A model generated the notes under the pieces. The model ran no database searches. It was not told the DNA's origin and saw only the letters and a list, made by a program, of their open reading frames with translations. 64,000 bases of DNA from Patescibacteria group bacterium (GTDB lineage: Bacteria; Patescibacteriota; Minisyncoccia; Moranbacterales; UBA2206): positions 1,075 to 65,074 of the forward strand of contig JAUPKF010000004.1 in NCBI GenBank assembly GCA_030837625.1. The letters run 5' to 3'. Made by a program: the position numbers and the translations under genes. This document shows positions 758 through 63,783 of the stretch, one piece after another (the stretch's first letter is position 1; the number at the start of each line of letters is the position of its first letter).

Positions 758-1291
758 TTATTTTTTATTTTTTATTTTATCCTCCAAATACTGTTGAAAG
801 TAACCCCTATACTTTTTTTGTAGCTTTCTTATTTTCCAATCATTATTAGAGACAATCTTTCTGCAATTTTTTTCTCCGCAAGAACATTCAAACTCATAAT
901 CTATCCCCTTCGATGATTGAAACAACACCATCCCATAATCAAAGGTAACCTGTTCGTTTTTTTTGATGTCTCGCATAGCCACTAAGAAAGTTTGCCCTTT
1001 AAACCCTGTATTCGGATTGCAACTATGATTAAAATAGCATGCAACTTCAATATCTGTCTTTCTTTTTATTCCTAAGACTAGATCATCATCAATTTGGACA
1101 GCGTTATCTCTTATGGATTCATGTAACTTCTGTTCTTCCCTGACACTCATAACATAACCGCCAAAAACCGCTACTGATACCCCCTTTTTTATATCATTCT
1201 TTGCAAAGACACCTTTTTCTTTTTTCGCTACCGCTCTAACTTCTACATCTGGGTTAGTCCAAGAAAACGTATTAGAAATTTTATTTGCCAT
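758..1291 (-). CDS. SET-domain protein (putative protein-lysine methyltransferase)
   Basis: 177-aa ORF with the SET signature NHSCNPN followed by Y/F and a Cys-rich post-SET stretch (ECSCGEKNC). Confidence 0.7.
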   Translation of the reverse strand: MANKISNTFSWTNPDVEVRAVAKKEKGVFAKNDIKKGVSVAVFGGYVMSVREEQKLHESIRDNAVQIDDDLVLGIKRKTDIEVACYFNHSCNPNTGFKGQTFLVAMRDIKKNEQVTFDYGMVLFQSSKGIDYEFECSCGEKNCRKIVSNNDWKIRKLQKKYRGYFQQYLEDKIKNKK

Positions 1292-1299
1292 AAAAAAAC

Positions 1300-2070
1300 C
1301 TAATGAATATACTCCTTAATTTTTTCAGGATAATATTGCCAAAAAATACTTCCGTCTTCATCAGTATCGAGCAGTGAAACTATTAATGGTCGAAAACCAA
1401 ACTTTTTCTCTATATCAGAAAATGCTGGAATTATTATTTCTTCCGTAAATTCTCTTTCACCCTTGTCTGACTTAACTAAAAAATTCTCCAAAAGAATCGC
1501 TGAATAAGAACAAATACTAAAAATTTTTAAATATATCTCATGCGGATTGAATCCTGCCTTCTTATAAACTGAAGCATCAAAAGTGCGAAATTTTGGAAAG
1601 TCGCTACTATCAAAAATTCTATGATGGAAAGAAACTAGACCCTCTCCCCATAAAGTTTTAATCTCATTGAGACATTTATTGTCAACCTCTTTAATGGAAA
1701 CTATTTTCTTCTTTGAAACAATTCGAAGATTGTCATCATTATTGAAAAACATCATTTTTCCCAAGTGCAATTTGTCGCGATTCCTGGTACAAAACTTATC
1801 CGCTGTATATTCTATAATGACCAAGTCTAAGCCCATCATACACGCATATTCGTAGGCAATCCCCATTTCAAAATTTGGTGTTGCGATATTTCGAAAAATT
1901 ACCGCTTTGGGCTTATCTTTGAAAATGTCAGGCACATCCCCTCCCAAAAAATTTTCTACCTTTTTCCGAAGCGCCTTGTCATTCCATCTTCGCCAGATTT
2001 CTTTCTTGGCAACAGATAAGGGAGTATACAGCTCCAAAACTTTCTTGCTGATTTCCTCATTGCTTCCCAT
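1300..2070 (-). CDS. Hypothetical protein (256 aa), co-oriented and tightly spaced with the SET gene
   Basis: Long ORF with no recognisable motif. 8-nt gap to the next gene suggests co-transcription. Confidence 0.5.
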   Translation of the reverse strand: MGSNEEISKKVLELYTPLSVAKKEIWRRWNDKALRKKVENFLGGDVPDIFKDKPKAVIFRNIATPNFEMGIAYEYACMMGLDLVIIEYTADKFCTRNRDKLHLGKMMFFNNDDNLRIVSKKKIVSIKEVDNKCLNEIKTLWGEGLVSFHHRIFDSSDFPKFRTFDASVYKKAGFNPHEIYLKIFSICSYSAILLENFLVKSDKGEREFTEEIIIPAFSDIEKKFGFRPLIVSLLDTDEDGSIFWQYYPEKIKEYIH

Positions 2071-2139
2071 AAATTATACCATAAAAAATTAAAATCGCAT
2101 AAAACAACCTAAAAAAAGAACGGCTCCAGCCGCCCCCCT

Positions 2140-2670
2140 TTATTGAATCTGATCAAATATTTTCAAAAATATTTCCACTCCCGAAAACGAGAGCGCCGTC
2201 CAATAGGCATTTGACACAAAGACGCTTCCGATGAAAATCCGCCATTCTTCTTTTTTGAAACCATTAAACTTTTTTACCCCATTTCGCAGATACACCGTCG
2301 TCACAAATGGGTCAAATTTCAAAGACAAGAAAAGAAATTCCGCCCAACGCCCTTTTCTCAAAAACCAAGCCAGCATCTTGCGAATTTTTTTTCTTTCATA
2401 CTTCCCGATATTTTTAATTTCCTCCCTGATTTCTTTTATCGCTTCAATCCCCAGCCAATCTTTTTTCACCAAATCATATATCAAAACGCTGACAAGACAA
2501 GACGCCGCCGAAAGGAGCATCATGACAATCCCGCCCCAAAGAGGACCGCGCTGGTATATAACATAAGGATAGAGCACATAATCAAAAGCCTGGTTGGTAC
2601 CGACAAAAAAAAGATACCCCACTCCCATCGCCTTAAAATCGAATTTTTTGAGAAGTTCAGCTGTAACCAT
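2140..2670 (-). CDS. Hypothetical integral membrane protein
   Basis: 176-aa ORF with several hydrophobic helices (GGIVMMLLSAASCLVSVLIY...). Confidence 0.5.
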   Translation of the reverse strand: MVTAELLKKFDFKAMGVGYLFFVGTNQAFDYVLYPYVIYQRGPLWGGIVMMLLSAASCLVSVLIYDLVKKDWLGIEAIKEIREEIKNIGKYERKKIRKMLAWFLRKGRWAEFLFLSLKFDPFVTTVYLRNGVKKFNGFKKEEWRIFIGSVFVSNAYWTALSFSGVEIFLKIFDQIQ

Positions 2671-2715
2671 AACTGTCTGTTTTAGCAGGTTTCCCGCCTT
2701 TTGTCAAGCATTTTC

Positions 2716-2885
2716 CCCCGACAAAAAAACCGCCCAATGGACGGTTTCGAGAAACGCTAAAGATGAGTCATTACATTTTCCAAACTAAAAAACTCCCCCC
2801 GCTCTGTTTTTGTTTCTCCGGGATCCCCCCGGAATGTTTTTTCGCGCATAAGCATAGAACCAAGTTGCTTATCCCCTATGGCTGT
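2716..2885. repeat. Copy A of a roughly 165-bp structured intergenic repeat (second copy at 7086..7256, about 90% identical)
   Basis: Two near-identical blocks match copy B, 52 nt and 39 nt long: cccccgacaaaaaaaccgcccaatggacggtttcgagaaacgctaaagatga and ttttttcgcgcataagcatagaaccaagttgcttatccc. Overlapping ORFs in the two copies (2757..2951 and 7028..7327) are not conserved at protein level. Confidence 0.85.
2723..2747 (-). terminator. Intrinsic terminator downstream of ispG (inside repeat copy A)
   Basis: Minus strand reads aaaccgtccattgggcggttt followed by a T7 run (stem AAACCG/CGGTTT). Confidence 0.6.
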
Positions 2886-3007
2886 ATTGTAGCATAAAAG
2901 GGGAAAATGAAAAAACCGGCTCATTGAACCGGCAGTTGTAACGTTATACATTTTTACTCAGAGATAGAGCGAAGCGCTTTTTAGAAAGCGGATACGAAGA
3001 CGATAGA

Positions 3008-4060
3008 TCAGCTTTCTTCCGCGAGTCTCTTGATTTCGGAAAAGAAGACCTTTATCATATCCTCCTCATTGCCGGATTGCAGCTTTTCCCCGTATTTAAA
3101 GACTACAGTAGCACCCTTTCCTCCGGCAATGCCAATGTCAGCTTGTTTAGCCTCTCCTGGTCCGTTCACGGAACATCCCATAACAGCGATTTTGAAAGTA
3201 GAGCTTATCGTACTTGTCATTTCCTCCACCATCGAAGCGTACCTTTCAACGTCAAGCTGTTTTCGGGCGCAAGTTGGACAGGATATTAATTCCGGGCCGC
3301 GCTTTCTGATTCCAAGAGCATTAAGAATTCCCCAGCCGACTTTCACTTCTTGCTCGGGAGGGGCAGTGAGGGAAACACGCATAGTAGATCCGATGCCCTC
3401 ACGGAGAAGCACGCCGATGCCAAGGACGTTCTTGATAGTTCCCATGAAGCTAGTTCCGGCATGGGTTACGCCAAGATGAAGAGGGTATCGCACTTTCTCT
3501 GCCAAAAGTCTGTACGCAAGAATCATTTCTTCGACATCGCTGAATTTCACTGATATGGCGATGTTCGAGAAATTCAAGTCTTCCAAGATGCGAACGTGTT
3601 CAAGGCATGATTCCACGGCTGCTTCGGGTGTTGGTCCGTATTTGTTAAGCAGTTCTTTGGCGATTGAACCTGCGTTTACTCCGATACGGATAGGGACATC
3701 CTTATCTCGACACGCGTCAACTACCACTCGTACTTTCTTTTTGCTCCCGATGTTTCCAGGGTTGATTCGCACTTTGTCGACCCCCTGCTTTATGGCCTCG
3801 AGCGCGAGTTTATAATCGAAGTGAATGTCTGCCACCAATGGAATATGGATGCGCTCTTTGATTTTTCCCAGAGCCGTAGCCGCATCCATGTCGGGAATCC
3901 CCGCGCGGACAATTTCACATCCGACTTGTTCCAGGCGTTGAATTTGCTTTATGGTAGAACGCCAGTCGCGAGTGTCTGTGTTGGTCATGGATTGAATTGT
4001 AATGGGCGAGTTTCCGCCCATTATGACATTGCCAACTCGAATACTGAGAGTCTCTTCCAT
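3008..4060 (-). CDS. ispG: 4-hydroxy-3-methylbut-2-enyl diphosphate synthase IspG/GcpE
   Basis: 350 aa with N-terminal VGNVxxGGxSPITIQSMTNT, internal GTSFMG, and a C-terminal CPTCAR...GCSVNGPGE Fe-S Cys triad. Typical bacterial IspG. Confidence 0.9.
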   Translation of the reverse strand: MEETLSIRVGNVIMGGNSPITIQSMTNTDTRDWRSTIKQIQRLEQVGCEIVRAGIPDMDAATALGKIKERIHIPLVADIHFDYKLALEAIKQGVDKVRINPGNIGSKKKVRVVVDACRDKDVPIRIGVNAGSIAKELLNKYGPTPEAAVESCLEHVRILEDLNFSNIAISVKFSDVEEMILAYRLLAEKVRYPLHLGVTHAGTSFMGTIKNVLGIGVLLREGIGSTMRVSLTAPPEQEVKVGWGILNALGIRKRGPELISCPTCARKQLDVERYASMVEEMTSTISSTFKIAVMGCSVNGPGEAKQADIGIAGGKGATVVFKYGEKLQSGNEEDMIKVFFSEIKRLAEES

Positions 4061-4233
4061 AGCATTTCCTTCCGATTGTCGGGATTAATAGTTGATAAAG
4101 AGCGGATACGCAGTAAAAGAGTATCAAGCGGTTCTCTCTGTGTCAATCGCTTATTGTAAATTCATTATAGGGTTGTACATATACGCAATTTTGCTATTTT
4201 TGGCTTTTTCTTGTATATTTTAGTGGAAATATT

Positions 4234-5040
4234 ATGAAACCTATATACATCTTGAAAATTGGGGGAAGTGTGGCCACGTATAAGAATCGACTGGGCATGT
4301 CGACAAGAAAGACGCTCTTAAAAGAGATTGGCCGTTCGATCAAAAAAGCTTTGAGAAAAGACAGTTTTGGTTTGATCTTGATTCACGGCGCCGGAGCCAT
4401 GGGACATCAACTGGCTAAAAAATATAATCTAGCTGAGGGAACCGGCATAAATCCGAAAAAATGGCGCGGAGCATTGATTTCTCGTTTAGTTAATAATAAA
4501 TTGAACGTGGATATCACGGAGATACTAGTAAGTCAGGGACTTCGAATAGCGCCAGTTCATACGGCTACGGCGATTATTCAAAAAAATAAAAAAATAGACC
4601 ACTGCGATTTAGAAATAATCAAAGAAGCCTTGTGCCAAGGATGCATCCCTCTGCTTTATGGCGAAATGGTTTTCGATGTGGAGCTGGGGATGTCGATTTG
4701 TTCTGGCGATGCCATCGCGCCATATTTGGCGGAAAAATTGGGAGCGCAAAAGATTTTTTTTGCTTCTGATATTGACGGGGTGTTTACAAAAGATCCGCAT
4801 GTCTACAAGGGCGCAAGGTTGGTAAAAAAAATTAACCTGAAGGATGTTTCTCGAAAAGCAAGCCTGACTGATTCGCACAACATTGATACTACTGGCGGTC
4901 TTTTGGGAAAAATTCAGAAACTGGATGCTAAATTTGGAAATCGTCTGAAATCGATAGAAATTTTTAATGGATTCCAAAAAGATAATTACGAGAAAATTTT
5001 TGCCGGCAAAGATTTTTCTCATACTGTAATAATTCCATAA
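4234..5040 (+). CDS. Amino-acid-kinase-family protein, most consistent with isopentenyl phosphate kinase
   Basis: 268 aa. Gly-rich N-terminus KIGGSV and HGAGAMGH motif. Size and motifs fit IPK rather than aspartokinase or UMP kinase. Immediately adjacent to ispG. Confidence 0.55.
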   Translation: MKPIYILKIGGSVATYKNRLGMSTRKTLLKEIGRSIKKALRKDSFGLILIHGAGAMGHQLAKKYNLAEGTGINPKKWRGALISRLVNNKLNVDITEILVSQGLRIAPVHTATAIIQKNKKIDHCDLEIIKEALCQGCIPLLYGEMVFDVELGMSICSGDAIAPYLAEKLGAQKIFFASDIDGVFTKDPHVYKGARLVKKINLKDVSRKASLTDSHNIDTTGGLLGKIQKLDAKFGNRLKSIEIFNGFQKDNYEKIFAGKDFSHTVIIP

Positions 5041-5051
5041 AAAAACGGCCG

Positions 5052-5537
5052 CTAGGCCGTTGCGGAAAGCTCGTTGAGCAATTCCGCTAGATGATTGTCG
5101 GTGAAGTGCTTAAGAATGGGCGCAACTTCAACGCGAATGTATTGTTGAAGAAGCTCGTCTATGGTTTTCCAGCCAGCGAACCGAATGTCAACGTCATTAG
5201 GAACGAAAGTTTCATTTGAATTACCAAGATACAAGCCGTATCCGTAAACAGTATAGATGTCGTTTCTACCGGGAATCAATTGGAAGTACGGCGCGGCAAT
5301 GTTAATGATTTTGGCTTCGCTCTTTTTAATGCCGACTTCTTCTGTAAGAAGACGCAGGATTGTTTCTTTGAAACTGCCGTCTTTTTCTTCGAATGTTTCC
5401 AGCGGAAAAGACTTCATTCCTTGAAATTTGTGGTACCGGGGTTTACTCCCAAGCTCTTCTACCGTAAAAAGCTTTAGAGAATCGTTTGCTGTTTTACTAA
5501 ACAGCAAAAAACCGACGCCAAAAATTCTTTCGCCCAT
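5052..5537 (-). CDS. NUDIX hydrolase
   Basis: Nudix box GMKSFPLETFEEKDGSFKETILRLLTEEVGI. Preferred start is the ATG at 5537 (MGERIFG), preceded by GAAGGAG. The ORF track extends the frame to 5600. Confidence 0.7.
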   Translation of the reverse strand: MGERIFGVGFLLFSKTANDSLKLFTVEELGSKPRYHKFQGMKSFPLETFEEKDGSFKETILRLLTEEVGIKKSEAKIINIAAPYFQLIPGRNDIYTVYGYGLYLGNSNETFVPNDVDIRFAGWKTIDELLQQYIRVEVAPILKHFTDNHLAELLNELSATA

Positions 5538-5676
5538 ATCAATCTCCTTCGGAGTACTAGTTGTGAATGTGCTATGTGCCGACAATAATGAGATTATCAC
5601 GACATATGTTTTAGAGCAAGTCTTGTATACTTGTTACCCATAAATACAGTCAGAGTAACATAATAAAATCATTACG

Positions 5677-6156
5677 ATGGAAAAAATCATAATCAAAGTA
5701 GCTTCCTTGGTGGTCAACAAAAAAAATCCAGAAGAAATTCTTCTTATCAAAGAAAAGACCGAAAAAAATGATCTTGCTAAGTGGAACGTATTAAAGGGGA
5801 CGTGCCTCCTCGATAAAGAAACAGTTTTTCAGGCCGCCGAAAGAGAGTGCTTTGAAGAAGCTTCCATAAAAATAAAACTGACGAAATCACTTGGATGCTA
5901 CTTAATAAAAAAACACACTGACGGTTTCAGAATACAATTTAACTTTATAGCCGAAATTGTTTCAGGCGTTCCGCGCGTTCAGGACAAAAAATATCAAGAT
6001 AAACTCAATGAAAACATAACGGAATTACGCTGGTTCAACAAATCTCAAATAAAGAAAATGGGAACGGAAGAATTTGTATCAAAAAGGACAAAGATGGTCT
6101 TAATGGATTGGATAGGAGGAAAGACCTATCCGCTGGAAATGCTCCAACAAATGTAA
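5677..6156 (+). CDS. NUDIX hydrolase
   Basis: Nudix box GTCLLDKETVFQAAERECFEEASI (RExxEE). Confidence 0.7.
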   Translation: MEKIIIKVASLVVNKKNPEEILLIKEKTEKNDLAKWNVLKGTCLLDKETVFQAAERECFEEASIKIKLTKSLGCYLIKKHTDGFRIQFNFIAEIVSGVPRVQDKKYQDKLNENITELRWFNKSQIKKMGTEEFVSKRTKMVLMDWIGGKTYPLEMLQQM

Positions 6157-6230
6157 ACTTAAAAAAAGAAGGAGATCGACCAAGTTTTTGGCCAATCTCC
6201 TTTTTTCTTTCGGCAAAGTTTTGCCGAGTT

Positions 6231-6779
6231 TTATTCTTCCGCTCTCCCCCACTCCTCTTTGAGAAGCCCCAGAACAATTTCGTCCGCGTAGCGGTTGTTT
6301 TTGAAAATCGCTTGTCGCCGCCGGCCTTCGATTTCGAAACCGAGCTTTTTGTGCATCGCGAGGCTTCGCTCGTTGAAATCATACACCGAGGAGCTGATCC
6401 GGCGGAGATTCAACTGGCAGAAAGCGTACTCCATGAGAAGTTTGGCCGCTTCGGTGCCATAGCCTCCGCCCCAAAAGTCTTTTTCCCCGATCGCGATGCC
6501 GAAAGTGGACACGCGGTCTTTCCAATTGATTTGGTGCAAACCGCAATTTCCAATAGGTTTCGATTCATTTTCGCCCGCCTTGATTTCGATCGAAAAAACA
6601 ATGTCATGTTCCGAGAGACTTACTCGCTCAAACCATTTTTCTTCCGCCAATTCCGTAATGGGAAGATAGACCTGTAAGAACTGAATAACTTCTGGATCGT
6701 TGAACCATTTGAGAGCAAGCTGAATATCCTTTTTCTCAATGGCTCGCAACATCACTTTCTCTCCCTGTAACGTAGGCAT
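6231..6779 (-). CDS. GNAT family N-acetyltransferase (RimJ/RimL-like)
   Basis: 182 aa. Acetyl-CoA-binding segment IAIGEKDFWGGGYGTEA and overall RimL-like layout. AAGGAGAG RBS 7 nt upstream. Confidence 0.8.
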   Translation of the reverse strand: MPTLQGEKVMLRAIEKKDIQLALKWFNDPEVIQFLQVYLPITELAEEKWFERVSLSEHDIVFSIEIKAGENESKPIGNCGLHQINWKDRVSTFGIAIGEKDFWGGGYGTEAAKLLMEYAFCQLNLRRISSSVYDFNERSLAMHKKLGFEIEGRRRQAIFKNNRYADEIVLGLLKEEWGRAEE

Positions 6780-6821
6780 AATTTCTCTCCTTCTTCGGAT
6801 AGTTGCGTAAGAACAAACGCT

Positions 6822-6853
6822 GAAAACAAAAGCCCGGCTTTTGTCCAGCCGGG
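6822..6853 (-). terminator. Terminator-like hairpin immediately upstream of the GNAT RBS (possible attenuator)
   Basis: Minus strand reads aagcccggctggacaaaagccgggc followed by TTTTGTTTTC (8-bp stem plus U-run), 40 nt before the GNAT start. Confidence 0.45.
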
Positions 6854-7085
6854 CTTATCCAAAAAAGGTTTGCGCTAAAAATCAGGTCCTATGTGAAGTT
6901 ATGCGCTTTGGGTAATTCCGGCTGAATAAAATGTTTTCGGCCATCGGGGACGCGAAAACACGGCCATTTCCATAAATGGCATTATCAGTCTTATTCAGCT
7001 GGCAATTACGATTACGCATAGTGTTTACTACAAAATCATCCTTGGCATATTTCTAACACCAACCAAGGCATTTGTCAAATTCAAA

Positions 7086-7256
7086 TTCCCCCCGACAAAA
7101 AAACCGCCCAATGGACGGTTTCGAGAAACGCTAAAGATGATTTGTCGTATTTTCCAAACTAAAAAGCTCCCCCCGTTTTGTTTTTGTTTCTCCGGGATCT
7201 CCCCGGAATGTTTTTTCGCGCATAAGCATAGAACCAAGTTGCTTATCCCTCTCATA
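7086..7256. repeat. Copy B of the roughly 165-bp structured intergenic repeat
   Basis: See copy A. Contains the same minus-strand terminator (7096..7121), here downstream of the M23 peptidase gene. Confidence 0.85.
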
Positions 7257-7343
7257 ACTCTACTATAGCATAGAAATAAAAAACGCCAACTTCTCCAAGT
7301 TTGGCGCATGATAGATTCCCCAAACACACAATCAGGCGTTATT

Positions 7344-9026
7344 TTAATCGACCCTCAGCCCTTGCGGAGGAAACAAGACAGATTCCGGCGGGTCAACCAG
7401 AGAAAAAACCATCTCTCGGCAATTATCAGACTGATCCTGATCTTTGGAAAAATCGGCGCAAGCCCTAAGAGTGTGATTGCCAAGAGCCAGGTCAGCGGTC
7501 AAAACATACAAGCTTTCGTGTTTTACCTCGTTATGTTCCAAATTATAAGCGCGCATATTTCCTTCGCCAATGAAACTTCCATTTAGATAAAACTTCATCT
7601 TGACATCTTCGTACGGTTCCCCTCCGGAATTGGTAGCTGTCCCCTCCGCGTAAGGATTTTCGCCTCTGGTGAATTGCGTCCGCCCTCCATCCAAAGTCAA
7701 ATTGATCATATTGAGATTGGGGCGCTTTCGCACCCGGCAGATAATGTTTCCCAGGCAATTGTTATTCTCATTGGATTCAGAAACGTCGCCATTTTTGTCT
7801 GTGCAGGCGTAGAATTGATATTTTTTCGATTCGCTTGGATCGGGATCGGGGGCACCGATTATGAAATGTTCGGTGGCGCTTTCCCCTCTTTCCAATTCTT
7901 CCCCTCGCATATATTCCGACCAATCTTTCAGATCATCGTTGACATGATCCCCTTCAAAACGGTAGAGCTTGACTCTGATTCGGTCAAGACTTGAATCAAC
8001 ATCTTCTCCGGCGTTTTTGGTTTTGGCGATTATATGGAAGTCTTCGTCATGGTAATAGTGAACCTTGTCATTTTCAAATTCAAGGGATTTGACGAAAAGG
8101 TCGGGTTTGTAAGTGAAAGGTTGGTCAGGAGATGTCACATTGCCAACCCCATCGTTGCTTCCTCCGCCATAACCGATGCCTGCTGGAGCTTCTCCGGCAA
8201 TTTCGACGATTTCGGCTTTCGAGTTCACCCTAAACCAAATGTCTTTCATTCCCCAATAGTCCATAAAGCCCTCGGTCACATAATGGGAAACGACGTATTG
8301 GTCGGGATAAATATACACAGCGTCCTGGCAACTGAAAATTTCCATTTGCCGGAAGACATCCGGATATTTGTTTCTCAGTTTCTCGCAACTCACGTCCGAA
8401 TTGGCCGGAAAGTTGTCGTCCAGAAAATTCATTGGATGTGTCCAGCCACATTCACCTCCAGAACCACAAACTCCACGAAACCGATCATCAGTATTAGCGG
8501 CAGGTTCAACGTCTGGCTTCATGCCAAAATGAAGATGTGGCCAGGCATCAGTACAGACACCGTCTCCATTGCCATCGCCGTAATATTGATGAACATTGCC
8601 AATAACCTCCCCCTGTTCAACTATATCTCCGATTTCCAAACCGGATTTTTTGTACATGTGTCCATAAACGGCATAAAAACTTCGGAAATATCCATCATGT
8701 CCTTTGGCAACATGATGCACGAGCATTGCGCCTCCAGTGCTACCGCAGGCACTCCCGTAGTAATTCCGGTCTGGCTTATAATCCACAATAAGCCCATGTG
8801 CCACTGCTTGGACTGAGTAGCCAACTGGTCTCATGTAATCGATGCCAACGTGCCCGGGATAACCGCCATCAGTAACGTAATTTCCCTCTGATGTTGAAGC
8901 ATTACGGTCGCAAGATCCTGCCGGACATTGCCAACCGGTCGAGCATTCTTCGGCAACGGCCATTCCGACAATAATGAACAGAGCAGCCAAGCAAGCCAAT
9001 GATTTCAGCAAACACAGTTTTTTCAT
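7344..9026 (-). CDS. Secreted M23 (LytM-type) metallopeptidase with C-terminal beta-rich domains
   Basis: Signal peptide MKKLCLLKSLACLAALFIIVGMAVA. M23 motifs HVGIDY (HxxxD) and HLHFG (HxH). AAGGAG RBS. Confidence 0.8.
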   Translation of the reverse strand: MKKLCLLKSLACLAALFIIVGMAVAEECSTGWQCPAGSCDRNASTSEGNYVTDGGYPGHVGIDYMRPVGYSVQAVAHGLIVDYKPDRNYYGSACGSTGGAMLVHHVAKGHDGYFRSFYAVYGHMYKKSGLEIGDIVEQGEVIGNVHQYYGDGNGDGVCTDAWPHLHFGMKPDVEPAANTDDRFRGVCGSGGECGWTHPMNFLDDNFPANSDVSCEKLRNKYPDVFRQMEIFSCQDAVYIYPDQYVVSHYVTEGFMDYWGMKDIWFRVNSKAEIVEIAGEAPAGIGYGGGSNDGVGNVTSPDQPFTYKPDLFVKSLEFENDKVHYYHDEDFHIIAKTKNAGEDVDSSLDRIRVKLYRFEGDHVNDDLKDWSEYMRGEELERGESATEHFIIGAPDPDPSESKKYQFYACTDKNGDVSESNENNNCLGNIICRVRKRPNLNMINLTLDGGRTQFTRGENPYAEGTATNSGGEPYEDVKMKFYLNGSFIGEGNMRAYNLEHNEVKHESLYVLTADLALGNHTLRACADFSKDQDQSDNCREMVFSLVDPPESVLFPPQGLRVD

Positions 9027-9141
9027 AGTTAGTCTCCTTAGTCGGTCTAATCTGAAAGTTTTCTTAAATTCAAACCACGGAAAAAACCGCCTGCTTTTAT
9101 AACCTCCTTTCTATTCAGTTTTCAAAGAACAATCACTTACA

Positions 9142-9864
9142 CTAATCTATTATTTTAAAACTCTCCATCATTTTTTTAAAAAAATTGTCTCCGTCATTCA
9201 TTTTCAAATTTAATCCCCGAACATAAAATTTAACAATCTTGCCTTTTAAATCAAAGTAAACATCCTCGTCATCAACAATTGAGGGTTCATCAACAGCTAA
9301 AACTTCTTGTCCGTTTATGATCAAAGTTTCCATTTTGTTAAAAGAGCACCCATTTTTACATTCCCTATTTGGACTATTTTCAGAACAATTGATACAACTT
9401 TCATTATTATGTTTCACCCAATCAATCAACGAAAATCTATCTTTGTTTTTATAAACTGAGATCTCAACAAGGTTTAGTTCTGGCACATCATGAATTCCAC
9501 CTCTTTCTTTTCTATATCTAACTGTATCTGAGTGCCTAATATACACAGAATTATTATTTCCAAATTCTGTATCGACAAAATGGCTATCCGGGTATTTTAT
9601 CTCAAACCCGTTTTTTTCATCCCTGTATACTTTCCATTCCGCGGTTCTCCAATCTTCTGAATTTGGTGGAACTGGTCTATTTGAATTGTTTTCAGTTTCG
9701 TTTTGATGGTCGCTTGCTTCACTAGTAGAGCTTTTTTCAATTTCCTCATTTTGTGAGATTTGGTTATCTGCCTTTTTTTCATTTCTTTCCCAAGCCCAAA
9801 AACCGCCAGCAGCAAGAACCGCTGAAACTAAAACAACTGAGCCAAATATCACTTTTCTATTCAT
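9142..9864 (-). CDS. Hypothetical secreted or membrane-anchored protein
   Basis: 240 aa. N-terminal hydrophobic segment VIFGSVVLVSAVLAAGGFWAW, then a polar region with several Cys. Confidence 0.5.
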   Translation of the reverse strand: MNRKVIFGSVVLVSAVLAAGGFWAWERNEKKADNQISQNEEIEKSSTSEASDHQNETENNSNRPVPPNSEDWRTAEWKVYRDEKNGFEIKYPDSHFVDTEFGNNNSVYIRHSDTVRYRKERGGIHDVPELNLVEISVYKNKDRFSLIDWVKHNNESCINCSENSPNRECKNGCSFNKMETLIINGQEVLAVDEPSIVDDEDVYFDLKGKIVKFYVRGLNLKMNDGDNFFKKMMESFKIID

Positions 9865-11725: not shown

Positions 11726-11809
11726 TTCAAATCTCGAATAACTGACAAAAAAACCGCCTCCGGGCGGTTTTGGGAAAAAAAACTATTGGATATTCTCGGC
11801 CGGATCGGG

Positions 11810-12016
11810 TTATTGGCCTTCCCGCCGGAAAAAACTTTTGGTGGTGGCCGCGATCCAGCGCCAGTGAAGAAGCAGATGGATAAAAACCAGCGCCGCGAAC
11901 AAATATCCAGTCACTTCGTGAATATCCCGCTGGCGGTTCAAAATCGAAAAGATGTTCACTACCAGCACAACCAACATCAGAAAATCGATGAAATAATTCA
12001 GCTTTTGTTTGTTCAT
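11810..12016 (-). CDS. Small membrane protein (68 aa)
   Basis: Two hydrophobic helices. 15 nt downstream of the acidic protein gene, same strand. The overlapping plus-strand ORF 11786..12034 looks less protein-like. Confidence 0.4.
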   Translation of the reverse strand: MNKQKLNYFIDFLMLVVLVVNIFSILNRQRDIHEVTGYLFAALVFIHLLLHWRWIAATTKSFFRREGQ

Positions 12017-29501: not shown

Positions 29502-29862
29502 TGTTTTATATCTTCTAAATTTCTAGTTTAGCTAATACTACCAGTGCCCCCAAATAATGTCAACAAGCATTGACATTTTAAAAAACAGGCTGCCCGCGCC
29601 TGCTTTGAAAAAAGATACCCGATAAATTTGATTATTTTTTCAACTTCTTCACCGTCTTAGGCATCGCTATCGTTTTCGTGACGTCAGCAAAATGATCAGG
29701 AGCCTTTTATTCAGCTTTTTATAGATGAAAACAGAGTTTGACAAATAGCTAAAGTCATTATACCATAGCACTTCAGTTCTTTTCGTTTTAAATAGGCAAC
29801 AACTGGCCAAAAACCATCTGAAATATAACAGAACTTTCACTTGAATTCAGAAGGAGAAAAGC

Positions 29863-30775: not shown

Positions 30776-30847
30776 TTGGGGAGGAGGGATTCGAACCCCC
30801 GCATGATAGGACCAGAACCTATTGCCTTACCGCTTGGCTACTCCCCA
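30776..30847 (-). tRNA. tRNA-Gln (anticodon CTG)
   Basis: Minus strand folds as TGGGGAG-TA-GCC-AAGCGGTAA-GGC-A-ATAGG-TTCTGGT-CCTAT-CATGC-GGGGG-TTCGAAT-CCCTC-CTCCCCA-A. The D-loop GCCAAGCGGTAAGGC is typical of tRNA-Gln. Confidence 0.85.
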
Positions 30848-30968
30848 GGGCAGTATTCGGTATATAGTATATAGTATTTGGCATTTAACATCAAGTTGCC
30901 CATTAAAATACAAAAAAGCACCTTAAATGCTTTCTAAATACTAAATACTAAATACTAGATACAAGCTA

Positions 30969-31877
30969 CTAAATCCTCAAATACTTTCTCATCGCGATGA
31001 TACTACTGAAGATTCCCAAGAATGTTCCGATTGCCAATTGCATGCCAAGAAGCAGGGCGAAATTTTTGAGATAAAAACTAAATAAGTTCTCCGGCAATAC
31101 CACCGACGGAAAATATTGGGCGGTAAAGCGGACGGAAAGAAACAGAAGCCCCATTGAGATAACGGAAGCAATCGCGCCGTAAATAATCCCTTCGAAGATA
31201 AACGGCAGACGGATGAAAGTATTGGAAGCGCCAACCAGACGCATCACTTCTATTTCCTGGCGATGAGTGTAGATGGTGATTCGGATGGTATTGAAAATAA
31301 TCAAGATGGAGATTCCCGCCAAAAGCACCGCCAATATCGATCCTATTTTTTTGATTTCCGCCACTATCCGGTTCAACTTTTCAATTATCTCCTTGTTCTT
31401 CCCATAATTCACCCGGCTAATATCTTCCTTGAAAGACGCCTCCGCCAAATAGGCAGACACGGATTCATATTGGTCCGGGCTTTTAGCTTTCACCACTAAA
31501 GAAGCCAGAAGCGGGTTTTCACCCAATTCCTCCAAAGATTTGACGATTGCCGGCTCATTAACGTTGTTGCTTTTGAAATCCTCCAGGGCTTTTTCTTTGG
31601 AAACATATTCAACCGACGCCACTTCCGAATAACTCTCCAGATCGATCTTCGCTTTCGAAATATTTTCCTCGGAAACATCGGATTTGAAATATATGCTGAC
31701 ATTGACTCTCTCCTGGACGTTTCTCAAAATGTTACTGCCGGTTTCGGTGATCACAAAGAGAACGCTGATGGTAAACAGCGAAAAAATCATCACGCTCACC
31801 GCCGCGACAGAAAGCCAGCCATTCCGCCAAAAATTTCTAAAACTCTCCCTAATTGTCCTGCCTAAAACTAAAAACAT
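30969..31877 (-). CDS. ftsX: Cell-division ABC transporter permease FtsX
   Basis: 302 aa. N-terminal TM, large periplasmic loop, three C-terminal TMs. Follows ftsE. Confidence 0.85.
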   Translation of the reverse strand: MFLVLGRTIRESFRNFWRNGWLSVAAVSVMIFSLFTISVLFVITETGSNILRNVQERVNVSIYFKSDVSEENISKAKIDLESYSEVASVEYVSKEKALEDFKSNNVNEPAIVKSLEELGENPLLASLVVKAKSPDQYESVSAYLAEASFKEDISRVNYGKNKEIIEKLNRIVAEIKKIGSILAVLLAGISILIIFNTIRITIYTHRQEIEVMRLVGASNTFIRLPFIFEGIIYGAIASVISMGLLFLSVRFTAQYFPSVVLPENLFSFYLKNFALLLGMQLAIGTFLGIFSSIIAMRKYLRI

Positions 31878-31894
31878 AAATATTCCCGATGCGA

Positions 31895-32010
31895 ATCAAC
31901 GAATTATATCCGAATCTACAAATAGCGCTCGCTCGTACCTTCCTTCGGAAACTGCCTCAATATTATTCGTAAATTCGCATTCATTCGTTGATTCGAATCG
32001 GTTTTTTAAC
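31895..32010. repeat. ATTCG-type palindromic intergenic element (ftsE-ftsX spacer)
   Basis: Terminal inverted repeats gatgcgaatcaacgaatta and attcgttgattcgaatcg. Inner atccgaatctacaaata and attattcgtaaattcgc match other copies. Confidence 0.6.
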
Positions 32011-57889: not shown

Positions 57890-57950
57890 GGAACAAGAAA
57901 TCCCGTGTTATGTGTTATGTGCTGTGTGTTATGTGTTATGTATTTACCTA
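57862..57950. repeat. Heptamer-array hairpin element (rpoA-rpsD spacer); paralog at 59205..59282
   Basis: cacgtaacacgtatcacgtaacatggaacaa ... tgttatgtgttatgtgctgtgtgttatgtgttatgt. The 5' arm pairs with the tgttatg x5 arm using G-U wobbles. Confidence 0.7.
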
Positions 57951-58576
57951 GAATAATATTCCACTACGATTTGCGGATCAGCATTAACACCCATCTGCGC
58001 CCTTTCGGGGCGGTTATTTATAGTCGCTTCCAAACTCTTTGCGTCAAAACCGATCCAAGCCGGAAAATCTTTCTTATTCCTAAGAGCCTGGGCTGTATTT
58101 TTAAAATAGTTTTTCTCTTTTTTGTAAGAGTCTTGGGAAATTTTCTGTCCAATTTTTACTTCGTATGAAGGAATGGTCACTTTTTTCCCGTTGACGCTTA
58201 TCAGACCGTGATTCACTAGCTGTCTGGCTTGAGAGCGAGAACTGGCAAATCCAATCCGGTACACCACGTTGTCCAATCGCATCTCCAGTCTCTCTAAAAG
58301 AAGATCTCCGGTAATTCCCTTTTTCTTTTTTACTTCATCAAAATGCCTTCGAAACTGGGCTTCCAAAACGCCATAAATCCTCTTAATTTTTTGTTTGACA
58401 GAAAGTTGCGTCCCGTATTCGCTAAGACCGCGCTTCATTTTTTTTCCGTGGACTCCCGGAGCATAAGCACGCTTAACTACTCCGCATTTTGGAGTATAGC
58501 AACGGTCGCCTTTGAGAAAAAGCTTTTCTCCGGCTCTCCGGCATTTTCTACATTTTGGATCAATATCTCGTGCCAT
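57944..58576 (-). CDS. rpsD: 30S ribosomal protein S4
   Basis: MARDIDPKCRKCRRAGEKLFLKGDRCYTPKC zinc-finger N-terminus. ATG at 58576. The ORF-track extension to 58588 begins on a non-ATG codon. Confidence 0.9.
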   Translation of the reverse strand: MARDIDPKCRKCRRAGEKLFLKGDRCYTPKCGVVKRAYAPGVHGKKMKRGLSEYGTQLSVKQKIKRIYGVLEAQFRRHFDEVKKKKGITGDLLLERLEMRLDNVVYRIGFASSRSQARQLVNHGLISVNGKKVTIPSYEVKIGQKISQDSYKKEKNYFKNTAQALRNKKDFPAWIGFDAKSLEATINNRPERAQMGVNADPQIVVEYYSR

Positions 58577-58588
58577 AATTATATACAC

Positions 58589-58685
58589 CGATCCGAATCT
58601 ACGAATATATCCGAATTCACGAATTTCTTATTCGCGTAATTCGTAGATTCGTAGATTCGAATGTCATTCGTAGATTCGCATCGCG
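58589..58685. repeat. ATTCG-type palindromic intergenic element (rpsK-rpsD spacer)
   Basis: ccgatccgaatctacgaatatatccgaattcacgaatttcttattcgcgtaattcgtagattcgtagattcgaatgtcattcgtagattcgc. Its ends are inverted copies of each other. Confidence 0.65.
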
Positions 58686-59210
58686 TTATACTCTTCGGGG
58701 TTTTTTGGGCCGGCATCCATTATGTGGAATCGGCGTTATGTCTTTTATCAAATTTAAATCAAAACCATTATTGGCTAGGGCCCTAATGGAAGCCTCTCTG
58801 CCGGAACCGACTCCTTTCACAAAAACATCCAACTCCCGCACTCCATATTTCCTAACTTTTTCACTCACATTCGCCACTACCTGAGTCGCGGCATAAGGAG
58901 TAGCCTTTTTAGCTCCCTTAAATCCAAGCAACCCCGAAGTAGCCCACCCCAAAACTCCACCGCTCAAGTCCGTTATACTGACAGAGGTGTTATTGTAAGT
59001 GCATTTTACCATCGCTTTTCCCTTAAGCACTTGCCTCTTAGCTTTCTTTATTTTTTTAATTTTCTCGGCTTCCACTTCGGTTTTTTCTTTCAAATCAACA
59101 GCGATGTCTCCCTTTCCCACTTCCACTTTCAAATCCCCAGCCTTCTCCGCCGTCTTCTGCTTTTCTTCTATTTTAATCTTCTTATCTTCCTCCATGTCAT
59201 CACGCAACAC
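58686..59210 (-). CDS. rpsK: 30S ribosomal protein S11 (with K/E-rich N-terminal extension)
   Basis: Conserved core ...GLLGFKGAKKATPYAAT... ending in the C-terminal RRV. 45-aa extension. Confidence 0.9.
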   Translation of the reverse strand: MLRDDMEEDKKIKIEEKQKTAEKAGDLKVEVGKGDIAVDLKEKTEVEAEKIKKIKKAKRQVLKGKAMVKCTYNNTSVSITDLSGGVLGWATSGLLGFKGAKKATPYAATQVVANVSEKVRKYGVRELDVFVKGVGSGREASIRALANNGFDLNLIKDITPIPHNGCRPKKPRRV

Positions 59211-59282: not shown

Positions 59283-59663
59283 TTTTTCCGTCTTGACTCT
59301 TCCCGAACCCATCGTTCGCCTGACATTTCCCCGAACAGTCCGGTTGTTTGTCTTGGTCCTTTGTCCTCTCGTCGGAAGACCCCTTTGATGCCGAACTCCG
59401 CGATAGCAGCCAATTTCTTTCAGCCGCTTCACATTATCTCTGACGATATGTTTGAGTTCGCCTTCAACCTTCACTGTTTTTTCTATATAACTTCTAATTT
59501 CATTTTGTTCTTCTTCGGACAAATCTTTGGTTCTTTTGAGTTTGGAAATCTTCAATTCGTCCAAAATTTTGGACGCGGTTGTCTGCCCTATGCCATAAAT
59601 ATAGGTCAAAGATATTTCTATTCTTTTTTCGTCCGGAATATTAACTCCTGATATTCTTAACAT
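59277..59663 (-). CDS. rpsM: 30S ribosomal protein S13
   Basis: [26 protein letters not shown]... Confidence 0.9.
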
Positions 59664-59752
59664 ATTTTACCGATTCGAATCTTCGAATACATTCGAATTC
59701 ACGAATCTACAAATTATTCGTATGGGCGCATTCGTAGCGCGCTATTCGCATG
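59664..59752. repeat. ATTCG-type palindromic intergenic element (rpmJ-rpsM spacer)
   Basis: ccgattcgaatcttcgaatacattcgaattcacgaatctacaaattattcgtatgggcgcattcgtagcgcgctattcgcatgc. Shares gaattcacgaat and ctacaaat...ttattcgta with other copies. Confidence 0.65.
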
Positions 59753-59866
59753 CTATCCTTGGCGTTGCTTGTGCTTTGGATTGGAACAAATCACGTAAAG
59801 TTTTCCTTTACGCTTGACTGTCTTGCACTTATCACAAATCTTTTTCACTGACGCTCTCACTTTCAT
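59753..59866 (-). CDS. rpmJ: 50S ribosomal protein L36
   Basis: [37 protein letters not shown], 37 aa, below the ORF-track size cutoff. Confidence 0.85.
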
Positions 59867-59870
59867 ATTT

Positions 59871-62334: not shown

Positions 62335-62420
62335 ATTTTTACGAATTATAAACGAATTTGCGCGAATCACGAATTCGTGCTTCGTGAAAATTCGTTTCCT
62401 ATTCGTATTTATTCGTCTAT
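62335..62420. repeat. ATTCG-type palindromic element centred on CACGAATTCGTG (ftsA to downstream gene spacer)
   Basis: aaacgaatttttacgaattataaacgaatttgcgcgaatcacgaattcgtgcttcgtgaaaattcgtttcctattcgtatttattcgtc. The left arm has acgaatt repeats and the right arm has aattcgt repeats. Confidence 0.65.
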
Positions 62421-62421
62421 C

Positions 62422-63690: not shown

Positions 63691-63783
63691 CGAGTTTTAT
63701 TTAATTATACCATAAAAATAAAAAGAAGCCACGGCGCGATATTGCCATGACTAGTCGCAGTTTCATATTATACATTTCGTGTT

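Follow-up and report, generated by a model that had tools for sequence, protein, structure and literature searches.

Two copies of a candidate small-RNA gene bracket the ispG block in the 64-kb stretch of DNA analysed here (the window), which comes from an uncultured Patescibacteria genome. The explanation that we favour, with a probability of about 0.5, is that insertion of the ispG block duplicated this gene and left the duplication as a recombination scar. On the minus strand, which is the gene strand, each copy is arranged like a small, self-contained transcription unit, with a promoter-like site of the extended -10 type, a stretch of some 157 nt in which two perfect hairpins lie, and a canonical intrinsic terminator. 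The product of each unit is most likely a non-coding small RNA. The two copies most likely mark the place at which recombination brought the ispG block into the chromosome, since a flanking duplication of like kind, though of quite different sequences, is present in two related genomes. The features are as follows.

2679-2707, minus strand: promoter-like site of the 176-aa gene, TTGACA-N17 (ending TGC)-TAAAAC, read from the sequence
2712-2875, minus strand: high-identity core of repeat copy 1, flanked by ispG and the 176-aa gene; covariance model match 198 bits
2723-2747, minus strand: intrinsic terminator of copy 1, a 9-bp hairpin (2727-2747) and U7 (2723-2729), from folds
2723-2879, minus strand: predicted transcript of copy 1, about 157 nt, with its start some 7 nt past the -10 and its end at the U-run, placed by promoter and terminator positions
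2767-2774 (copy 2, 7141-7148), minus strand: hypervariable patch with 6 of 11 mismatches, five of them transitions; predicted loop of the consensus fold
2817-2833 (copy 2, 7191-7207), minus strand: hairpin 2, UCCGGG/CCCGGA with a 5-nt loop, from folds
2848-2872 (copy 2, 7222-7246), minus strand: hairpin 1, AUAAGCA/UGCUUAU with an 11-nt loop, from folds; identical between copies
2886-2894, minus strand: upstream of copy 1, an extended -10 promoter-like site, TGCTACAAT, in the context TTTTATGCTACAAT; called with TG by the promoter scan (2913>2886)
2915-2933, minus strand: intrinsic terminator of ispG itself, upstream of copy 1, from terminator scan and fold
2897-7085: bracketed block, six features by Pfam and coordinates
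3008-4060, minus strand: ispG (Pfam)
4234-5040, plus strand: IPK-like kinase (Pfam)
5052-5600, minus strand: NUDIX (Pfam)
5677-6156, plus strand: NUDIX (Pfam)
6231-6779, minus strand: GNAT (Pfam)
6822-7060, minus strand: structured leader
7050-7078, minus strand: copy 2 equivalent of the downstream promoter-like site, TTGACA-N17 (ending TGT)-TAGAAA, read from the sequence
7086-7249, minus strand: high-identity core of repeat copy 2, flanked by the M23 peptidase gene on one side and the structured leader/GNAT gene on the other; covariance model match 205 bits
7097-7121, minus strand: intrinsic terminator of copy 2, from folds
7097-7255, minus strand: predicted transcript of copy 2, about 159 nt, placed in the same way
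7262-7270, minus strand: upstream of copy 2, an extended -10 promoter-like site, TGCTATAGT; called with TG by the promoter scan (7289>7262)
7278-7307, minus strand: the M23 peptidase gene's own terminator, a bulged hairpin with U6, upstream of copy 2, from fold

A repeat search of the window aligned 2712-2875 with 7086-7249 as a direct repeat of 164 nt with 93% ungapped identity and a spacing of 4374, and blastn extended this to 187-190 nt at 90% identity, reaching 2899 and 7275 (E ~6e-69), which bears out the two-copy repeat of about 90% identity described in the initial annotation. The copies are 94% identical within the core but only 50-59% identical just outside it (Fisher p = 1e-5 and 7e-8). 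Neither terminal inverted repeats nor target-site duplications were found at the two copies. The BLASTN copy-number check that had been proposed gave two copies in the 64-kb window (blastn word 7, and likewise a covariance model built from both copies) and no match in genome collections; nor was a match found in metagenome, viral, phage, plasmid or protein collections. The proposed Rfam covariance search assigned the repeat unit to no known RNA family; weak matches to leader families include Phe_leader at 21 bits against a threshold of 55 bits.

Both promoter sites match the TTTTATGGTATAAT extended -10 type of this genome. The 9.7 kb of minus-strand intergenic DNA contain 12 sites of this type, the 54 kb of coding DNA also 12, and plus-strand intergenic DNA one. 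Such sites are thus about 5.6-fold denser in the intergenic DNA of the gene strand, with 12 sites there against one on the opposite strand. As to the promoter-like sites downstream of the units (2679-2707 and 7050-7078), the pattern TTTTTGTC-N8-30-TTGACAAA is present only at the two copies, with 0 expected. At the 3' end, the minus-strand hairpin and U-run reported for each copy were confirmed: AAACCGUCC-AUU-GGGCGGUUU with its U-run has -13.0 kcal/mol and a pairing probability of 0.92-0.97 in folds, and it is perfect on the minus strand only, the plus strand having a C.A mismatch and -8.0 kcal/mol. The simple terminator scan omits this hairpin because its rule extends the stem into pairing between the A-tract and the T-run. 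That these terminators serve ispG and the M23 peptidase gene, as had been claimed, is wrong. Both genes have terminators of their own upstream of the repeat (2933>2915 and 7307>7278), and therefore the repeat's terminator ends a separate unit.

The two other hairpins that had been described are also there, namely, the 7-bp ATAAGCA-N11-TGCTTAT at 2848-2872 and 7222-7246 and, in the plus-strand reading, ccggg(N5)cccgg with T6 (in full TCCGGG-N5-CCCGGA then T6) at 2817-2833 and 7191-7207. In hairpin 2 the sole difference between the copies lies in the loop (2826). The unit of about 157 nt also has a G/U-rich domain with the variable loop. Mismatches between the copies are not uniformly distributed (permutation p = 3e-4) and 10 of the 11 are transitions; the core differs at 10 of 161 nt, all of them outside the 44 positions that form stems (p = 0.04). 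One core difference turns U.G into C-G. No compensatory pairs were found in the two-sequence alignment, and covariation gives no signal because just two sequences exist. The whole unit folds no better than shuffled sequences (z = -0.8 to -1.4), and complementarity to targets, cognate or otherwise, was not above background. Among the three roles suggested initially for the repeat, namely, a small RNA gene, a transcriptional insulator and the terminal repeat of a mobilisable unit, the small RNA gene is the best supported, by the orphan extended -10, the two hairpins, the terminator and the substitutions that avoid stems.

Why there are two copies is suggested by a new result, the recurrence of a bracket around the NUDIX-IPK-ispG block in relatives. 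The NUDIX182/IPK/ispG core is syntenic with three related loci, L084, L086 and L087. In L084 the block is bracketed by a direct repeat of 218 nt at 97% identity (8251-8468 and 11739-11956), which is the 3'-terminal 218 nt of an ORF for a histidine kinase, and in L086 by one of 109 nt at 92% (1638-1746 and 5082-5190), which consists of the promoter, the 5'UTR and about 11 codons of an AbrB/MazE-like ORF. The bracketing repeats of L084, L086 and the window are mutually unrelated in sequence, those of the relatives being copied from local flanks, and the chromosomal context of the block differs among the three. L087, the fourth clade contig (4 kb), has no bracket around the block. Among some 70 ispG loci of the outgroup that are 3 kb or longer, a bracketing repeat was found in one only (76 nt, 80%), and the comparison with three of four clade loci gives a binomial p of ~1e-5. 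The spacer from ispG to the next gene is 115-198 nt in relatives without the unit and 337 nt in the window. Against a scar, the genes at the edges of the block vary between genomes. All eight differences between the L084 copies are at codon position 3 (p ~1.5e-4), and therefore these copies look like alleles of two lineages.

These findings bear on two earlier arguments. The suggestion of a terminal repeat of a mobilisable unit holds in so far as the block seems to have changed place or been inserted and two relatives have such a bracket too, but the repeats are not the intrinsic ends of an element: since they differ between genomes and copy local flanking DNA, they are better described as insertion scars. 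Taken by itself, the inference of RNA- or DNA-level conservation from 90% identity and the lack of a conserved ORF is weak, because the duplicated flanks in the relatives reach 97% and 92% and one of them is a gene fragment without a start.

If the copies are scars, the conserved unit may have served as a one-sided homology anchor for inserting or replacing the ispG/IPK/NUDIX block, either by Campbell-type integration of a circular intermediate or by homology-facilitated illegitimate recombination (HFIR, as defined in PMC3240628) with DNA of a related lineage; either route would leave the anchor on each side of the block. Natural competence has been reported for Patescibacteria (PMC10633639). 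The same topology could also arise by tandem duplication with a subsequent deletion. Neither an empty site nor a donor arrangement for the insertion was observed.

The same unit anatomy would be expected of sibling small RNAs, that is, an older in-situ duplication whose 94% identity is held by selection, with a variable loop giving copy-specific targets and a coincidental or regulatory placement on either side of the ispG block. Precedents for such pairs are PrrF1/PrrF2 and OmrA/OmrB (PMC4211561), the core is far more alike than its immediate flanks, and the variable patch lies in a predicted loop. We consider this unlikely, because it leaves unexplained why the same block is bracketed by non-RNA sequences in two relatives, and also because target complementarity is at background and no orthologues were found. 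A slightly less probable product is a hydrophilic 32-aa peptide, MLMREKTFRGDPGETKT(E/K)RGE(F/L)FSLEN(VMT/TTN)HL, encoded on the minus strand, possibly besides an RNA role. The initial annotation, which held that overlapping ORFs are not conserved as protein, needs a correction here. Both copies keep two small ORFs intact, one of 32 codons (minus strand) and one of 43-44 codons (plus strand), but neither has a signature of coding constraint (pN/pS 0.54 and 0.57). The 32-codon ORF has the same start and stop in both copies, with the stop 10 nt ahead of the terminator, and L084 has an analogous three-copy promoter-to-terminator unit with some coding signal (a 29-30-codon ORF with pN/pS of 0.32-0.38, a third-position excess and a 3-nt indel that keeps the frame). 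In the window, by contrast, the differences are distributed 3/3/4 over the codon positions, the AUG lies within the 3' arm of the perfect 7-bp hairpin, a Shine-Dalgarno sequence at a useful distance is absent, and the small-ORF products have no homologue among 5.8 billion proteins, nor does the peptide have a Pfam match.

That the repeat is a functionless duplicated spacer or a dispersed MITE/REP-like element, with motifs that resemble a promoter and a terminator by chance, is improbable. Its high identity has sharp boundaries, Logan assemblies break inside it, and non-functional flank fragments persist at 92-97% in relatives; yet it lacks terminal inverted repeats and target-site duplications, even a covariance model finds no third copy in 64 kb, public assemblies have no spurious ORF calls through other copies, each copy lies at the same distance from a consensus promoter, and the stems are free of substitutions. 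Quite improbable is a cis-acting leader or attenuator, in which the transcript of the unit would pass a regulated terminator into the 176-aa gene (copy 1) or the structured leader and GNAT (copy 2). The terminator is 42-66 nt upstream of the next start. The downstream -10 hexamers, TAAAAC and TAGAAA, end without the final T, so that transcription may continue into the next gene; the promoter scan did not call them. Against this, each downstream site combines a perfect TTGACA with a 17-nt spacer and a TGn extension, the genes that follow the two copies are not related to each other, no competing antiterminator was found (the alternatives are weaker by about 12 kcal/mol and are not the same in the two copies), and the weak Rfam matches to leader families, Phe_leader among them, cover the terminator hairpin and are far under threshold. 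A type I toxin-antitoxin module, with the plus-strand ORF of 43-44 aa as toxin and the minus-strand RNA as a fully overlapping antisense antitoxin, is very improbable. In its favour, the repeats are duplicated units in intergenic DNA, and the variable patch, which overlaps the start region of the ORF at codons 2-4, would prevent cross-talk between copies. The intact ORF has a basic cluster after a hydrophobic window and barely passes a coarse filter that asks for 10 or more hydrophobic residues out of 15 (PMC2887945), but that window has Pro, Gly, Ser and Glu with a Kyte-Doolittle maximum of just 1.4. In addition, no plus-strand promoter was found, the plus-strand hairpin and T6 fall inside the ORF, its pN/pS is 0.57, and no homologue of it was found.

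Small intergenic repeats that carry promoters or terminators include Correia/NEMIS, ERIC, BOX and RUP, which are marked by terminal inverted repeats, by copy numbers of tens to hundreds, or by both. The window repeat is like them in being about 100-200 bp and intergenic, with stem-loops and a possible effect on neighbouring transcription, and unlike them in having two known copies only and neither TIRs nor TSDs. Direct repeats also bracket genomic islands at gene 3' ends (att repeats) and attC-flanked integron cassettes, and as in genomic islands the L084 repeat is a gene 3' end that would be restored by the incoming copy. Unlike these, the ispG block has no integrase or other recombinase in or beside it and carries housekeeping-type isoprenoid genes, and its repeats share no sequence between genomes and have no attC-like structure.

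The sibling sRNAs PrrF1/PrrF2 of Pseudomonas aeruginosa are 95% identical, and OmrA/OmrB of E. coli have near-identical ends and a different centre (PMC4211561). As in these pairs, the window has two nearby, highly similar intergenic units, each with a predicted promoter and Rho-independent terminator, and as in OmrA/OmrB a conserved scaffold is combined with a variable patch. Unlike them, the window copies are 4.4 kb apart with five genes between and not in tandem, and how they came to be two seems to be connected with a move of the block between them. Regarding the favoured explanation, a recombination scar, transformation is known to generate duplications with bordering repeats (PMC3784515), and a block flanked by direct repeats that copy the local target resembles the outcome of a Campbell-type single crossover or of HFIR (PMC3240628). 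The variable repeat length (109-218 nt), the block without a recombinase gene and the copies that differ as alleles would (8 of 8 third-codon positions in L084) are likewise as in one-sided integration. The difference from the cited experiments is that here, where the event is one that we infer, the same three-gene core appears scarred in three genomes at three different sites.

A repeat search of the window confirmed that the repeat exists as two direct copies, 2712-2875 (copy 1) and 7086-7249 (copy 2), which are 164 nt long, start 4374 nt apart, and are 93% identical without gaps. The initial annotation had put the identity at about 90% and this was borne out by a blastn match that reaches about 190 nt at 90%. 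Both blastn with a word size of 7 and a covariance model built from both copies gave a copy number of two in the 64-kb window. Between the copies lies a block of genes, namely, ispG, an IPK-like kinase gene, two NUDIX genes, and a GNAT gene, and nearly all of the window genes are carried on the minus strand. The ispG protein (QG620_294) is annotated as 'hypothetical protein', and the 176-aa gene product had no Pfam match. The features are as follows.

Features of the two copies and their surroundings
2712-2875, copy 1: intergenic, between ispG (3008-4060, minus) and the 176-aa gene (2140-2670, minus)
7086-7249, copy 2: intergenic, between the M23/CARDB peptidase gene (7344-9026, minus) and the region 5' of the GNAT gene (6231-6779, minus)
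2933>2915, minus: own intrinsic terminator of ispG, preceding copy 1
7307>7278, minus: own intrinsic terminator of the M23 peptidase gene, preceding copy 2
2886-2894, minus: extended -10 promoter-like site of copy 1, TTTTATGCTACAAT
7262-7270, minus: extended -10 promoter-like site of copy 2, TTTCTATGCTATAGT
Core, minus: hairpin 1, AUAAGCA-N11-UGCUUAU
Core, minus: hairpin 2, UCCGGG-N5-CCCGGA
Core, minus: A-rich linker, in the same core as hairpins 1 and 2
Core, minus: G-run able to pair with a GUUUCUC segment, then a loop containing a variable patch
Core, minus, 3' end: GC-rich 9-bp hairpin, then U7

It had been claimed that the terminator in the repeat serves ispG and the M23 peptidase gene. 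This is wrong because each of these genes has its own intrinsic terminator 5' of the repeat. The usual promoter type of this genome is TTTTATGGTATAAT, which is found 3-16 nt 5' of several start codons, and when TGnTAnnnT sites with at least five of six matches to TATAAT were counted, intergenic DNA had 12 on the minus strand (9.7 kb) and one on the plus strand, and coding DNA (54 kb) had 12. The high-identity core starts about 7 nt 3' of the extended -10 site and the identity, 94% within the core, is only 50-59% over the 27-28 aligned columns that flank it on each side (Fisher p = 1e-5 and 7e-8), the similarity left in the flanks being what two consensus-type promoters of this genome share anyway. 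The terminator hairpin is fully paired on the minus strand (one pair being U.G; -13.0 kcal/mol), whereas a C.A mismatch interrupts it on the plus strand (-8.0 kcal/mol), and this gives direct information on the strand. In both copies TTGACA is found 8-11 nt past the core, followed by a 17-nt spacer ending in TGn and then by TAAAAC or TAGAAA, and these sites are plausible as a promoter for the next unit. Since the neighbours' own terminators on the 5' side are followed by a promoter, the core, a terminator, and the next promoter, the repeat reads as an orphan unit of about 157 nt that runs from promoter to terminator, and this predicted unit is inserted between two other transcription units. 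Its layout is that of a small RNA gene, intergenic and with a promoter and a Rho-independent terminator of its own that are distinct from the signals of its neighbours.

Several other features of the window were observed. Perfect extended -10 boxes close to start codons are found, for example, at 2073-2081, 41213-41221, and 63704-63712, and because these boxes are so near the start codons several genes would have leaderless or near-leaderless mRNAs; other window genes have clear AAGGAG Shine-Dalgarno sequences. Good extended -10 sites at 29757-29765 and 59003-59011 on the minus strand are 256 and 415 nt 5' of the next gene on the same strand and could belong to further non-coding transcripts or long leaders. 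Degenerate repeats of the ACGAAT/ATTCGT type abound in spacers near 30805-30968, 31878-32005, 57890-57943, 58589-59030, 59652-59870, and 62371-62421, and short tandem repeats are found 3' of 57944-58588 (CACATAA-like units) and 3' of 30969-31877 (TATTTAG, three times). The 239-nt region that separates copy 2 from the GNAT gene (6822-7060, minus) folds at -76.7 kcal/mol against -55.8 +/- 4.5 kcal/mol for shuffles (z = -4.65, none of 200 shuffles folding as well), with a long closing stem, 6900-6929 paired to 6991-7020, around two hairpins, and then come an intrinsic terminator (6856>6830) and the GNAT Shine-Dalgarno sequence. A 45-codon ORF overlaps this region and no Rfam family matched it, the best scores being 22.8 bits for SdsR_RyeB and 22.2 bits for Thr_leader. 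The region resembles a leader of the riboswitch type or a further small RNA.

The two copies of the repeat differ at 11 of the 164 nt and 10 of these mismatches are transitions. Six of the 11 cluster in the variable patch at 2767-2774 (permutation p = 3e-4). The 161-nt core has 10 differences, all outside the 44 nt of the three robust stems (p = 0.04), and one of them converts U.G to C-G. Folding of the whole unit as a single sequence was no better than that of shuffles on either strand (z = -0.8 to -1.5), and there were no compensatory pairs, covariation being impossible with two sequences only. A rival explanation is that the unit acts in cis as a leader. The pairing probability of the terminator is 0.92-0.97, no antiterminator that competes with it is evident, and with its 3' arm blocked the alternative structures are about 12 kcal/mol weaker and are unlike between the copies. 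This speaks against a riboswitch or transcription attenuator, which would call for such a competing structure. Another rival is that the two copies are sibling small RNAs that are both under selection. Duplex energies against the 65 translation-initiation regions of the 64-kb window were no better than those of shuffles, and pairing of the variable patch with cognate and non-cognate neighbours was at background. In copy 2 only, the patch (7141-7148, RNA ...ACGACAAAUC...) is complementary over 7 nt (CGACAAA / UUUGUCG) to 7093-7099, the sequence directly 3' of the terminator U-run, and this could come from templated (quasi-palindrome) mutation, or read-through transcripts could pair in this alternative way. 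At the patch position copy 1 carries the palindrome TGAGTCA instead.

A 32-codon ORF on the minus strand and a 43-44-codon ORF on the plus strand overlap the unit. The initial annotation had described the ORFs as not conserved as protein, which stands in that coding constraint is absent (pN/pS 0.54 and 0.57) but not in that both frames are intact in both copies. The differences in the minus-strand ORF are spread 3/3/4 over the codon positions, and for both ORFs there was no homologue among 5.8 billion proteins and no Pfam match. If the plus-strand ORF coded for a toxin, the unit would be a type I toxin-antitoxin module, for which an antisense unit is plausible. Type I toxins have been filtered by at least 10 hydrophobic residues in 15 (PMC2887945), and the plus-strand ORF has exactly 10 of 15 in a stretch that includes Pro, Gly, Ser, and Glu, with a Kyte-Doolittle maximum of 1.4. 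Against such a module, no promoter was found for the plus-strand ORF and the terminator-like hairpin with T6 on the plus strand falls within it. By analogy, the unit could also be the gene for a 32-aa micro-protein because L084, the ispG contig of a relative, carries a three-copy family, D1, in which each copy has a 29-30-codon ORF, MQDFRQ(K)NIDQIGLLLVQSPETVCEFCVLN, with an in-frame 3-nt indel and pN/pS of 0.32-0.38. The D1 copies (L084 2952-3090, 3842-3980, and 5096-5234; 78-92% identical) are promoter-to-terminator units of about 140 nt in consecutive spacers 5' of the 217-aa, p176-like, and p256-like genes, and the ORF stop is 12 nt 5' of the terminator. There was no RNA covariation in this family and D1 is probably an unannotated micro-protein family. 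Homology of the unit with D1 is not claimed since the likeness is limited to the terminator and TTGACAAA, with a local alignment score of 25 against a shuffle maximum of 24.

The unit matched no known RNA family in Rfam release 15 at gathering thresholds, and the best permissive matches cover the terminator hairpin and score far lower (for example, Phe_leader, 21.4 bits against a threshold of 55). Exact 19-25-mers of the three invariant blocks had no match in species-representative genomes, JGI metagenomes, or IMG/VR, and blastn against phage and plasmid collections gave chance 24-nt matches only. The covariance model did not find the unit in 11 related loci, and blastn did not find it in the loci of the relatives. 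Contigs of this organism are present in the runs SRR24011131 and SRR24011133. In independent Logan assemblies of two runs the flanking genes were present at 100% identity and the contigs end about 30-40 nt into the repeat, as a k=31 graph would be expected to do at a repeat. A further rival is inert DNA or DNA of a repeat family. Two copies are present in 64 kb. The repeat was also translated in all six frames and the joined product compared with 5.8 billion proteins, so that spurious ORFs called in further copies would show up; there was no match. Comparison of the copy ends revealed no target-site duplications and no inverted repeat linking them, which speaks against a MITE, an IS-derived element, and a REP-like repeat. 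The identity of the intergenic copies had also been taken as proof of conservation at the RNA or DNA level, an argument that is weak by itself; for genome scans the caution is that highly similar intergenic copies alone do not show function at the RNA or DNA level. The most likely explanation of the unit is that it is a small RNA gene, as predicted from sequence: its promoter and terminator are on the correct strand, substitutions spare the stems, and there is no coding signature.

The nearest ispG relatives among 5.8 billion proteins are 68-71% identical to that of the window (P0002-P0006) and the following tier is at 65% or lower. In the relatives' contigs L084/L085, L086, and L087 the core NUDIX(182-aa-like)-IPK(opposite strand)-ispG is syntenic, the IPK being 60-62% and the NUDIX protein 47-50% identical to those of the window. 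The spacer from ispG to the next gene is 115-198 nt in these relatives, with a terminator and a promoter only, whereas that of the window measures 337 nt. The 176-aa, 256-aa, and SET genes of the window are downstream of the block, but their homologues in L084 are upstream of it, and since the flanking genes are on opposite sides copy 1 would lie at a rearrangement junction. Direct repeats bracket the same block in each relative with enough flank, that is, in three of the four clade contigs with the window included. The L084 bracket (8251-8468 and 11739-11956, spacing 3488) is 218 nt long with 97% identity and the L086 bracket (1638-1746 and 5082-5190, spacing 3444) is 109 nt long with 92%; the repeats of L084, L086, and the window are mutually unrelated in sequence. 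As a control, some 70 further ispG loci at least 3 kb long, four other CPR genomes included, were each compared with themselves, and only one had a bracketing repeat (76 nt, 80%). At this rate of about 1 in 70, three of four clade contigs correspond to a binomial p of about 1e-5. The next-tier relatives (ispG 63-64% identical) had no bracket, other gene contexts, and no ispG-IPK linkage. A 51-nt repeat flanking ispG in L006, from a Berkelbacteria MAG, was rejected as a bracket since it is really the 5' leader common to two genes. These 90% identical leaders (5801-5851 and 8003-8053) of two minus-strand genes on either side of ispG consist of a CCUCCCC...GGGGAGG hairpin, a ribosome-binding site, and a start codon, and could regulate both genes in common. 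L090, which comes from a CPR relative further away, has a perfect tandem duplication of 110 nt (2482-2701) adjoining a gene with a weak Pfam match to Y1 transposase (IS200/IS605-type).

In the window, L084, and L086 the bracketing repeats are local target sequence, and their sources are a small unit, the 3' end of a kinase gene, and the 5' end of a small gene, respectively. The left copy in L084 is the final 218 nt of a histidine-kinase ORF (6631-8469) and the right copy is a start-less kinase fragment 3' of the block, followed by the apparent native kinase terminator. The right copy in L086 covers about the first 11 codons of an AbrB/MazE-like ORF together with its promoter and a 5'UTR with a hairpin, and the left copy is a truncated duplicate. 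Because of three A>G changes the two L086 copies prefer different 5'UTR hairpins; the ORF 3' of the right copy (L086 5140-5310) carries an in-frame TAA (...LAKIGK*SVGVTLPIEDVRELGW...) and may be a pseudogene or reflect a sequencing error. The block thus stands in three chromosomal contexts, M23|p176 (window), HisK|GNAT (L084), and Macro|AbrB-like (L086). All eight differences between the L084 copies are at third-codon positions, six being synonymous, one E>D in the boundary codon, and one TAA>TAG, for which the chance expectation is (1/3)^8 = 1.5e-4. Decay in place would have added first- and second-position changes, so the L084 copies diverged under coding constraint, and they look like alleles from two lineages set side by side by recombination. 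In the window the differences avoid the stems, which is only suggestive of alleles.

Integration of the block through a single homology region would leave an allele of the anchor on both sides of it, either by a Campbell-type crossover with a circular intermediate or by homology-facilitated illegitimate recombination, as defined in PMC3240628. The anchor could be any local sequence conserved enough between donor and recipient, such as a kinase domain or a leader, or the small unit in the case of the window, and this would also explain why the high-identity borders coincide with those of the presumed functional element. Transformation produces duplications bordered by repeats (PMC3784515) and cultivated Patescibacteria are naturally competent (PMC10633639). 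The composition of the block was not distinguishable from that of its flanks, and the site without the block was not found in the collections searched, which contain no close enough relatives. Against an integrase-mediated island or integron cassette, no recombinase gene was found by Pfam among the window genes at 758-9864 or in the gene lists of L084 and L086, and the repeats have no sequence in common between the genomes. The most likely explanation of the two-copy state is that it is a scar left when the ispG block was inserted and is not itself selected. We give a probability of about 0.5 to the combined reading, a small RNA gene whose duplication is an insertion scar. That the NUDIX-IPK-ispG block is a recombinase-less mobile metabolic cassette, leaving 109-218 bp landing-pad duplications with the unit as a lineage-specific regulatory RNA pad, is unlikely; if it were so, the block would relocate or spread between lineages and the duplications would be unusually long.

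What most deserves to be pursued is that the bracket recurs around one metabolic block in three Patescibacteria genomes, and this may outweigh the unit. It would mean that isoprenoid-precursor genes (ispG, isopentenyl-phosphate kinase, and NUDIX) were inserted at three sites in three related ultrasmall bacteria, and the anchor duplication would be a sequence-level signature of recombination-driven exchange of gene blocks that can be searched for across MAGs. No description of small RNAs or intergenic repeat families of Patescibacteria was found in the literature searched and, given its clear layout, the unit is a concrete candidate for testing in metatranscriptomes. Both aspects of the combined reading are known in kind, the one as sibling small-RNA-like units and the other as anchor duplications.
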